This document shows positions 25,651-26,569 of a stretch of 64,000 nucleotides of DNA, piece after piece; positions within the stretch are counted from its first letter, which is position 1; each line of letters starts with the position of its first letter. The notes below the pieces were generated by a model that saw only the letters and a list, made by a program, of their open reading frames with translations, was not told the DNA's origin and made no database searches. This DNA is from Escherichia coli (GTDB lineage Bacteria; Pseudomonadota; Gammaproteobacteria; Enterobacterales; Enterobacteriaceae), in NCBI RefSeq assembly GCF_050920415.1, contig NZ_CP169309.1, one strand, 5' to 3'. The position numbers were made by a program, and so were the translations under genes.

Positions 25651-26569
25651 GAATCTTGACCTTTTTTGCTGTTATCGCCACTCCCTGCCGTGGAAGTCAG
25701 CTTAGAACAATGTACTCCCCCAGGACGGCGTTTTGAAGGTCTGCAGAATAAGATTTTGCCAGAGGGGAAGGCTTGATTGTGCTGTTAATAACTTAATAAT
25801 GGCAAAATAATTAGGTGTATATGCTTAATAATTAATGTTATGTAGTTAATTGTTCTGATTCTTAATTGTGGGTGTGGTTTTTTTATCTGTAAGATAATTG
25901 TTTGAAAATGCCTCGTTTAAGAATTCACTAATGAATCGTGATGATGATATTTCCGCATTACGGAGAGTTTAACAGCGTGATGATTTCCGAGGTGTCGTAA
26001 TGGGGGCAAGGTGTGAAACTATTGTTAAGCGGGATTAATGAATGAGGATGATGCTAATTAATTATTATTTAATATTCAAAAAGGTTTTGTTGTGCTTATT
26101 AATAATAGAAGATTACTTTGCCTAACATAACATAACTTTGCATCAGATAATTCGCAATGACCCTTATAAATAAAAGGTTTTTGGGGTAAAATGCTCGCAT
26201 AAATGACGGATCCCTGCTCTTGATGCCGCCTCACCATTGCTGTTTGTACGTGTTCGCGTATGACCAGCGATGCTGCACGAGAGTGGAACAAGGACTCACA
26301 TTTACATTTATACAAACACGCGCATGTCATAAATACAAAAGAGTGAGTAACTTAATAGATATGCGATTCCTGAAGATATATTCTGTGATCTACTTCAGGC
26401 ATTATAACGGAACAATGTGAGTCGCTTTTTTAGTGCAACTCATATGCATTTTTACTTTCGTCCGGGTTCCGGATGAAACTGCCAGGGAGGCACATTACAA
26501 ATGGAATTGCTTGTTTGTGTGTGCACAGCATTAACCAGCTCAGTACGAGCCGCCAGTAAGTGATAATAT

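Follow-up and report, generated by a model that had tools for sequence, protein, structure and literature searches.

The divergently oriented genes alaA and lrhA of Escherichia coli are separated by an intergenic region of 919 bp (25651-26569), which was analysed within a window of 64,000 nucleotides (NCBI RefSeq assembly GCF_050920415.1, contig NZ_CP169309.1); all positions refer to this window, a part of the E. coli chromosome in which yfbS, yfbR, alaA, lrhA and nuoA follow each other. An initial annotation of this DNA had remarked on the unusual length of the region and on its strong AT-richness, and both remarks hold. The literature already mentions the region as the '920 bp-long lrhA-alaA' spacer, named together with csgD-csgB and nanC-fimB among long spacers rich in transcription-factor sites (Shimada et al., 2014, PMC3946193), and its GC content lies at 0.31-0.35 across 25700-26200 in comparison with ~0.50 in the flanking genes. 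The same annotation had pointed to three mini open reading frames (ORFs) and to a duplicated motif. It is highly probable in our view that the alaA-lrhA gap represents an ancestral composite regulatory region of Enterobacteriaceae, and that the mini-ORFs and the repeat are non-functional by-products. The locus is an ordinary and already known one, the length of which is explained by known biology.

The region belongs to the core genome: of 5426 complete E. coli genomes, 5425 carry it. No feature is annotated beneath the region match among the 20 E. coli records listed, and neither a coding sequence (CDS) nor a non-coding RNA is annotated between lrhA and alaA in K-12 BW25113 and MG1655. Of the 80 related loci (L002-L081), 78 show divergent synteny of alaA and lrhA with a gap of 848-1140 bp (920-950 bp in most cases), as does K-12 (L001), and since this arrangement with its similar gap is common to them, the long gap is regarded as ancestral. 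For the comparison between species, 80 intergenic sequences were aligned (the window, K-12 and 78 representatives of Enterobacteriaceae species); the comparison within the species was based on nine sequences of E. coli sensu stricto, and ORFs were counted over 79 species-level sequences. In the species alignment, identity to the window peaks at 25651-25760, 26012-26080, 26141-26200 and 26481-26570 only, and falls to a minimum of 0.22-0.39, with gaps, at 25900-26000, where the first mini-ORF, the first repeat copy and the Shine-Dalgarno (SD) sequence and start codon of the second mini-ORF are located. Among the nine E. coli sequences, variable sites make up 0.9% of the alaA-proximal block, 3.4% of the lrhA promoter and 1.1-2.5% of the lrhA 5' untranslated region (UTR), and 12.1% and 11.0% of the intervals 25761-25925 and 25926-26061, the latter being the mini-ORF zone.

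The size of the gap would thus be the sum of four stacked parts (Table 1). Next to alaA, a compact promoter with a leader of ~52 nt would take up 25651-25760. It would be followed by an AT-rich, fast-evolving spacer of ~380 bp carrying transcription-factor sites, among them a conserved distal block, by the sigma-70 promoter of lrhA, and by the 371-nt lrhA 5' UTR, through which LrhA synthesis is repressed by Hfq together with small RNAs (UhpU, ArcZ and RprA). The mini-ORFs and the duplication could then have arisen as by-products of the AT-rich, (GAT)n-containing sequence of the E. coli lineage in the second of these parts.

Table 1. Features of the alaA-lrhA intergenic region and the adjoining genes (window positions).
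Feature	Position	Strand	Basis or remark
alaA CDS (alanine transaminase)	24433..25650	-	ORF list and RefSeq annotation of the orthologous K-12 locus
Putative alaA 5' leader, ~52 nt, with conserved hairpin ACTTCC-ACGGCA-GGGAGT	25651..25702	-	conservation; predicted fold -11.9 kcal/mol
Putative alaA sigma-70 promoter: -35 TTCAAA (25737..25732), 17-bp spacer, -10 TACATT (25714..25709)	25709..25737	-	conservation
GCAAAATCTTaTTCTG, a conserved element shortly upstream of the alaA -35	25744..25759	-	alignment
Variable AT-rich spacer holding mini-ORF1, repeat copy 1, SD and start of mini-ORF2	25761..26008		alignment
Repeat copy 1 (TAATGAATCGTGATGATGATATTT)	25929..25952	+	E. coli-specific, polymorphic
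Mini-ORF1 (MNRDDDISALRRV)	25931..25972	+	chance ORF upstream of the lrhA start site
Mini-ORF2 (MGARCETIVKRD), GAGGTG upstream	26000..26038	+	chance ORF; 3' half overlaps conserved DNA block
Conserved distal block: TGTGAA-N5-TGTTAAG, ATTAATgaAT, ~12 bp variable, AATTAA-N-TTaTTTAaTAT	26012..26076		per-column information content
Repeat copy 2 (TAATGAATGAGGATGATGCTAATT)	26036..26059	+	only TAATGAAT and terminal AATT conserved
Mini-ORF3 (MNEDDAN)	26038..26061	+	ATG and stop within conserved DNA motifs, codons between them vary
lrhA sigma-70 promoter: -35 TTATAA (26164-26169), 17-bp spacer, -10 TAAAAT (26187-26192)	26164..26192	+	near-invariant in 80 species
lrhA 5' UTR, 371 nt, Hfq-bound, targeted by small RNAs	26199..26569	+	literature (PMC10578931, PMC4152368, PMC5861431)
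Conserved UTR blocks CCAGGGA (26482-88), AAATGGAATTGCT (26499-26511) and GCACAGCATTAACC (26523-36)	26482..26536	+	conservation
lrhA CDS (LysR-type regulator)	26570..27508	+	ORF list, annotation

Promoters, leaders and conserved blocks

The lrhA side of the gap is occupied by a long transcribed leader. A 5' UTR of 371 nt has been published for lrhA (Melamed et al., 2023, PMC10578931), and because K-12 and the window do not differ by insertions or deletions in this stretch, the lrhA start site is placed at 26199. This position is an A lying 7 nt past the TAAAAT of a sigma-70 promoter, and the promoter module, CTTATAAAT...GGTTTT.GG(G/T)TAA(G/A)AT, was found to be the most invariant DNA of the whole region in the 80 sequences, so that a published start site and a matching promoter together indicate a long leader. 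The leader is known as a target of small RNAs: UhpU, ArcZ and RprA pair with the lrhA UTR and repress, with compensation between UhpU-M1 and lrhA-M1, and McaS forms chimeras with the leader but is without effect on the reporter (PMC10578931). Data from MS2-affinity purification followed by sequencing of the RNA (MAPS) support lrhA as a target of RprA (PMC5861431). Moreover, co-immunoprecipitation with Hfq yielded leader fragments of ~150 and ~350 nt next to a full transcript of ~1.5 kb (Bilusic et al., 2014, PMC4152368), the latter being broadly consistent with 371 + 939 nt plus the 3' end.

Two RNA 3' ends determined by Term-seq on this strand, MG1655 positions 2406933 and 2406691, correspond to 26278 and 26520 and are both situated inside the UTR, and the same list contains no 3' end in the mini-ORF zone (Adams et al., 2021, eLife 62438). 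The end at 26278, 80 nt after the lrhA start site, is strong and labelled 'orphan', and that at 26520, at -50 from the lrhA AUG, carries a 'No' in a column which we read as Rho dependence. These ends may correspond to the Hfq-bound leader fragments.

The leader contains conserved blocks at 26482-26536 and 26553-26569, the block listed at 26498-26511 reading CAAATGGAATTGCT, and AGTAAGTGA is conserved just 5' of the lrhA AUG. Within them, CACAGCA is complementary to positions 62-68 of RprA and 45-51 of McaS, and CCAGGGA to positions 68-74 of ArcZ. The blocks at 26482-26536 are likely docking sites for small RNAs; the 7-mers, not significant by themselves and therefore suggestive only, agree with the published RNA interaction by ligation and sequencing (RIL-seq), reporter and MAPS data. 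Contiguous small-RNA matches of at least 9 nt against the region were uninformative, and duplex folding of the small RNAs against the region was discarded, as it returned meaningless long-loop duplexes everywhere.

An upstream ORF (uORF) is present inside the true lrhA leader at 26501-26563. It comprises 20 codons, is preceded by GGGAGG at 9 nt as SD sequence and ends 7 nt before the lrhA ATG; K-12 carries a 15-codon version, and in the surrounding GGAATTGCTT it is the nucleotide sequence that is conserved. The candidate was rejected as a uORF coupled to lrhA, since its ATG occurs in 32 of 79 species and its length ranges from 4 to 37 codons, and it is probably not a conserved uORF. Two further ORFs of the mechanical list, one of 84 aa at 26076-26330 on the minus strand, antisense to the lrhA promoter and leader, and one of 66 aa at 26220-26420 on the plus strand with a TTG start, in the leader, are presumed to be spurious; this stretch is poorly conserved between genera.

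On the opposite side, 25651-25760 (minus strand) is almost invariant in the 80 sequences and has one variable site per 110 among the nine E. coli. We infer the alaA promoter from this conservation and the alaA start site from the promoter rather than from mapping. The hexamers and their spacing are kept in at least 80-95% of the sequences, and in the hairpin of the putative leader G/A changes preserve the pairing. A conserved GCAAAATCTT element upstream of the promoter emerged from the same alignment, and the element at 25744..25759 is a candidate UP element or transcription-factor site.

The DNA between the two promoters behaves differently. The stretch 25761-26008 is the least conserved and most polymorphic of the region, with a cross-species identity to the window of 0.22-0.51 and 11-12% variable sites in E. 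coli. Over the interval 25761-26140, length stays similar (mostly 365-387 bp) in the 80 species while the sequence turns over, and GC amounts to 0.27-0.41 in all of them versus 0.47-0.59 for the lrhA CDS; AT-richness is therefore retained despite divergence, as expected for a divergent spacer serving several factors.

Embedded in this DNA lies the conserved distal block, which spans -187 to -123 as counted from the lrhA start site. Its elements TGTGAA-N5-TGTTAAG, ATTAATgaAT and AATTAA..TTTAATAT (an alternative spelling of the third element in Table 1) are led by an 11-bp-phased direct repeat, the TGTGAA-N5-TGTTAAG, and in 50 of 68 species the TGTTAAG keeps a distance of 138-143 bp upstream of the lrhA -35. 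Direct repeats of 11 bp are a typical feature of regulators of the OmpR/PhoB family. CRP, PhoP, CpxR and OmpR were considered as possible ligands of TGTGAA-N5-TGTTAAG in view of their consensus sequences. By its conservation and spacing, the block looks like a candidate position-dependent docking module for a transcription factor, with LrhA, CpxR, OmpR and Lrp as candidate ligands. A more specific version, in which the block would serve LrhA autoregulation and/or activation of lrhA by a winged-helix response regulator (CpxR or OmpR) at a fixed helical phase, with repeat copy 2 as part of a genuine operator, is put forward tentatively and may well not hold.

Regulators of this kind are reported to bind here. 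Chromatin immunoprecipitation (ChIP) followed by sequencing identified lrhA as a direct, Lrp-activated target, and ChIP binding of OmpR as well as binding of CpxR have been reported for the region. Binding of LrhA to its own promoter is likewise on record, with an electrophoretic mobility shift assay in Pantoea and autoregulation in E. coli, and the site has been described as 'not well defined' (PMC5723134). H-NS is not flagged for the lrhA-alaA spacer in the table of systematic evolution of ligands by exponential enrichment (SELEX) of PMC3946193. As with the start site, the UTR length and the regulation by small RNAs and Hfq, we rely on the literature for the binding of these proteins, and on our own comparisons for the coordinates, chance expectations and patterns of conservation and polymorphism, including the conservation of the promoters.

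Several observations concern the sampled loci and the neighbourhood. A scan of 24000-28500 with Rfam returned a sole hit, RF02901, with 19.6 bits versus a gathering score of 97 (E=0.25), located outside the intergenic region and attributed to chance. It falls into the lrhA-nuoA intergenic region (27509-28137), which is likewise long (629 bp) and AT-rich (GC 0.36-0.41). One locus labelled E. coli (L002, NZ_JAATUR010000019.1) has alaA and lrhA genes only 87-90% identical to those of the window and represents a distinct Escherichia lineage, and another labelled Chryseobacterium sp. (L061, CACSKA010000019.1) shows a typical enterobacterial alaA-lrhA locus, so that contamination or mislabelling is likely. 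In 42 of the 5425 genomes no single match spans at least 80% of the region. In E. coli SCPM-O-B-12142 (L083, NZ_CP144928.1) the insertion sequence (IS) IS1 follows the first 161 bp of the intergenic region, and IS elements, elaD fragments and rbn stand in place of the lrhA side, indicating an IS-mediated deletion or rearrangement by which lrhA was lost from the site.

Weighing the mini-ORFs and the duplicated motif

The three mini-ORFs exist with the coordinates and peptides that had been assigned to them, and GAGGTG is indeed found 5 nt 5' of the ATG at 26000. Their interpretation as leader peptides or uORFs belonging to a long lrhA 5' UTR found no support, however. The long UTR is real, but with the start site at 26199 the mini-ORFs (25931-26061) come to lie 138-268 bp upstream of it (138-270 bp if the repeat copies are included), and hence mini-ORFs and repeat copies are promoter-upstream DNA outside the leader. 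Their number does not exceed what the composition predicts: the plus strand of the 919 bp holds 17 ATG-initiated ORFs of at least 7 codons versus 16.1±3.5 in 500 dinucleotide-preserving shuffles, and SD-like sequences precede three ORFs versus 2.0±1.4. A consensus scan for promoters and terminators gave no enrichment over shuffles.

Neither start, frame, peptide nor presence of the mini-ORFs is conserved. The ATGs of mini-ORF1, which has no SD sequence, and of mini-ORF2 are confined to the window among the 79 species-level sequences and absent from all 78 other Enterobacteriaceae species sampled, one of which has GTG/TTG at the position of the mini-ORF2 start. Within E. coli, the mini-ORF1 ATG is CTG in three of nine strains; E. 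albertii and L002 have lost repeat copy 1 as well as the starts of mini-ORF1 and mini-ORF2, the latter being TAG/ATA. The ATG of mini-ORF3 was detected in 36 of the 79 sequences, yielding 29 distinct peptides (MNEDDAN, MNARCAN, MSSGDLN, MNGRILN and others), and a stop follows after 1-3 codons in six sequences including E. albertii. Since its ATG and stop lie inside the ATTAATgaAT and AATTAA motifs with ~12 freely varying bases between them, the apparently conserved frame reflects the fixed spacing of two conserved DNA elements and not a peptide. Changes among the E. coli strains are mostly nonsynonymous (N2K, A9S and A9V in mini-ORF1; C5R and D12N in mini-ORF2; N2Y, E3G and D5E in mini-ORF3). 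A text search of the literature for lrhA together with ribosome profiling gave no match, and the lack of transcription and translation over 25900-26100 is deduced from the published UTR length, the promoter conservation, the Term-seq list and the evolutionary evidence, not from coverage.

The duplicated motif is present as well. The direct repeat TAATGAAT-N3-GATGATG occurs twice, about 107 bp apart as first described, with starts at 25929 and 26036 instead of the 25927 and 26034 originally given, and it can be extended to 24 nt with 19/24 identity. When the whole region is shuffled, 4.7% of the shuffles contain a 24-mer match at least this good, and 2.7% do so for the AT-rich core, a marginal result for which the length of 24 nt was chosen after the fact. 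In the 64-kb window the exact pattern is limited to these two sites, which has no bearing on significance as the pattern was derived from them. The suggested comparison across Enterobacteriaceae gave no indication of conservation of the pair: among 94 loci checked, both exact copies co-occur in this strain alone, eight loci with the E. coli intergenic region have one exact copy only, L085 has none, and no exact match was found in any other species. Copy 1 is not conserved beyond E. coli and is polymorphic within it (AAT>AAA, TAA>TAC), and the GATGATG half lacks conservation in both copies, even among Escherichia. In copy 2, the first 8 nt are part of a conserved ATTAATGAAT element.

How far could these elements nevertheless be functional? 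If the mini-ORFs were translated, as leader peptides or uORFs, from a longer lrhA transcript or from a small transcript of their own, and in this way tuned lrhA expression, the good SD sequence of mini-ORF2 (GAGGTG, 5-nt spacing), the overlap of its stop with the start of mini-ORF3 (TAATG), which resembles translational coupling, the recurrence of the mini-ORF3 ATG and the ~1.5 kb band reported for lrhA RNA would find an explanation. We regard this as very improbable, given the position outside the 371-nt UTR, the lack of a conserved promoter or terminator near the mini-ORFs, the restriction of mini-ORF1 and mini-ORF2 to E. coli, the 29 unrelated peptides of mini-ORF3, the agreement of the ORF count with shuffles and the absence of an annotated CDS in K-12 or RefSeq; functional mini-ORFs are much less likely than a docking module in the distal block. 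A pair of operators for one nucleoid protein or transcription factor, formed by the two TAATGAAT-N3-GATGATG copies ten helical turns apart, appears unlikely too, although somewhat less so. Such a pair would profit from a repeat better than in 95-97% of shuffles, from a 107-bp spacing that brings both copies to the same helical face, from the position of copy 2, the TAATGAAT of which belongs to the conserved ATTAATgaAT element, and from the binding of Lrp, OmpR, CpxR and LrhA to the region. The initial suggestion of binding-site repeats for a nucleoid protein is thus right in so far as proteins are bound here, but the pair itself is not conserved: copy 1 fails in E. albertii and L002 and varies in E. 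coli, the GATGATG half of copy 2 varies everywhere, eight E. coli-type loci have a single exact copy, and the repeat statistic is post hoc. Finally, the AT-rich core might be regarded as the remnant of horizontally acquired or mobile DNA or of a decayed gene, in view of its low GC (0.31-0.35) relative to the neighbours and of the IS1 inserted in the region in at least one strain. This is extremely unlikely for an interval that keeps a similar length and AT-richness in 80 species of many genera with conserved synteny, that is core in 5425 of 5426 E. coli genomes and that holds neither long ORF remnants nor terminal repeats.

Some points weigh against the composite regulatory region with by-product ORFs and repeat as we propose it. 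The promoter scan did not pick the lrhA promoter, the -35 of which matches at 3/6 positions, and listed a weak site at 26122-26151 instead; the ~1.5 kb RNA of the northern analysis (PMC4152368) is slightly longer than 371+939 nt plus a terminator; and the 7-codon length of mini-ORF3 is kept in 27 of the 36 sequences with its ATG. A condition-specific promoter further upstream is conceivable, and the 107-bp spacing (~10 helical turns) together with the overlap of copy 2 and the conserved element would allow a lineage-specific role in protein binding. Among the options of the initial annotation, it is chance that we favour both for the mini-ORFs (17 vs 16.1±3.5, unconserved) and for the duplication (3-5% of shuffles, one strain).

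Relation to known regulatory systems

A better knowledge of this control region is of real interest, since LrhA ranks high in the network that governs motility, fimbriae and RpoS. On the negative side, our work prevents the annotation of three chance ORFs as small proteins and shows that a mini-ORF preceded by an SD sequence is just what the composition of AT-rich promoter DNA predicts. Mildly new is the conservation map, which comprises the alaA promoter and hairpin, the distal block at a fixed distance, the lrhA promoter and the UTR blocks and may guide the search for LrhA, CpxR or OmpR sites.

With its short ORFs ahead of a regulated gene, one of which is preceded by an SD sequence, the region recalls the leader-peptide attenuators and uORFs of the trpL, pheL and mgtL type. 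Unlike these, however, the mini-ORFs lie outside the mapped transcript, lack runs of regulatory codons, are not followed by a terminator or antiterminator and are unconserved. With the 'type-A' divergent spacers (csgD-csgB, 755 bp; nanC-fimB, 1456-1458 bp; lrhA-alaA, 920 bp; PMC3946193) the locus shares divergent genes, an AT-rich core and several regulators, and like them it controls a master regulator of motility and biofilm; it differs in that ~40% of its length is transcribed leader and not upstream DNA. The closest relation is to the long 5' UTRs regulated by small RNAs and Hfq, such as those of rpoS, csgD and flhDC, among which lrhA itself is a published case (PMC10578931) and shows no difference. 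The traits held in common are a 371-nt leader transcribed from a sigma-70 promoter that is conserved, several small RNAs depending on Hfq, conserved blocks no more than ~90 nt from the AUG, leader fragments bound by Hfq, and 3' ends inside the leader; the mini-ORFs and the duplicated motif stand outside this published lrhA UTR.

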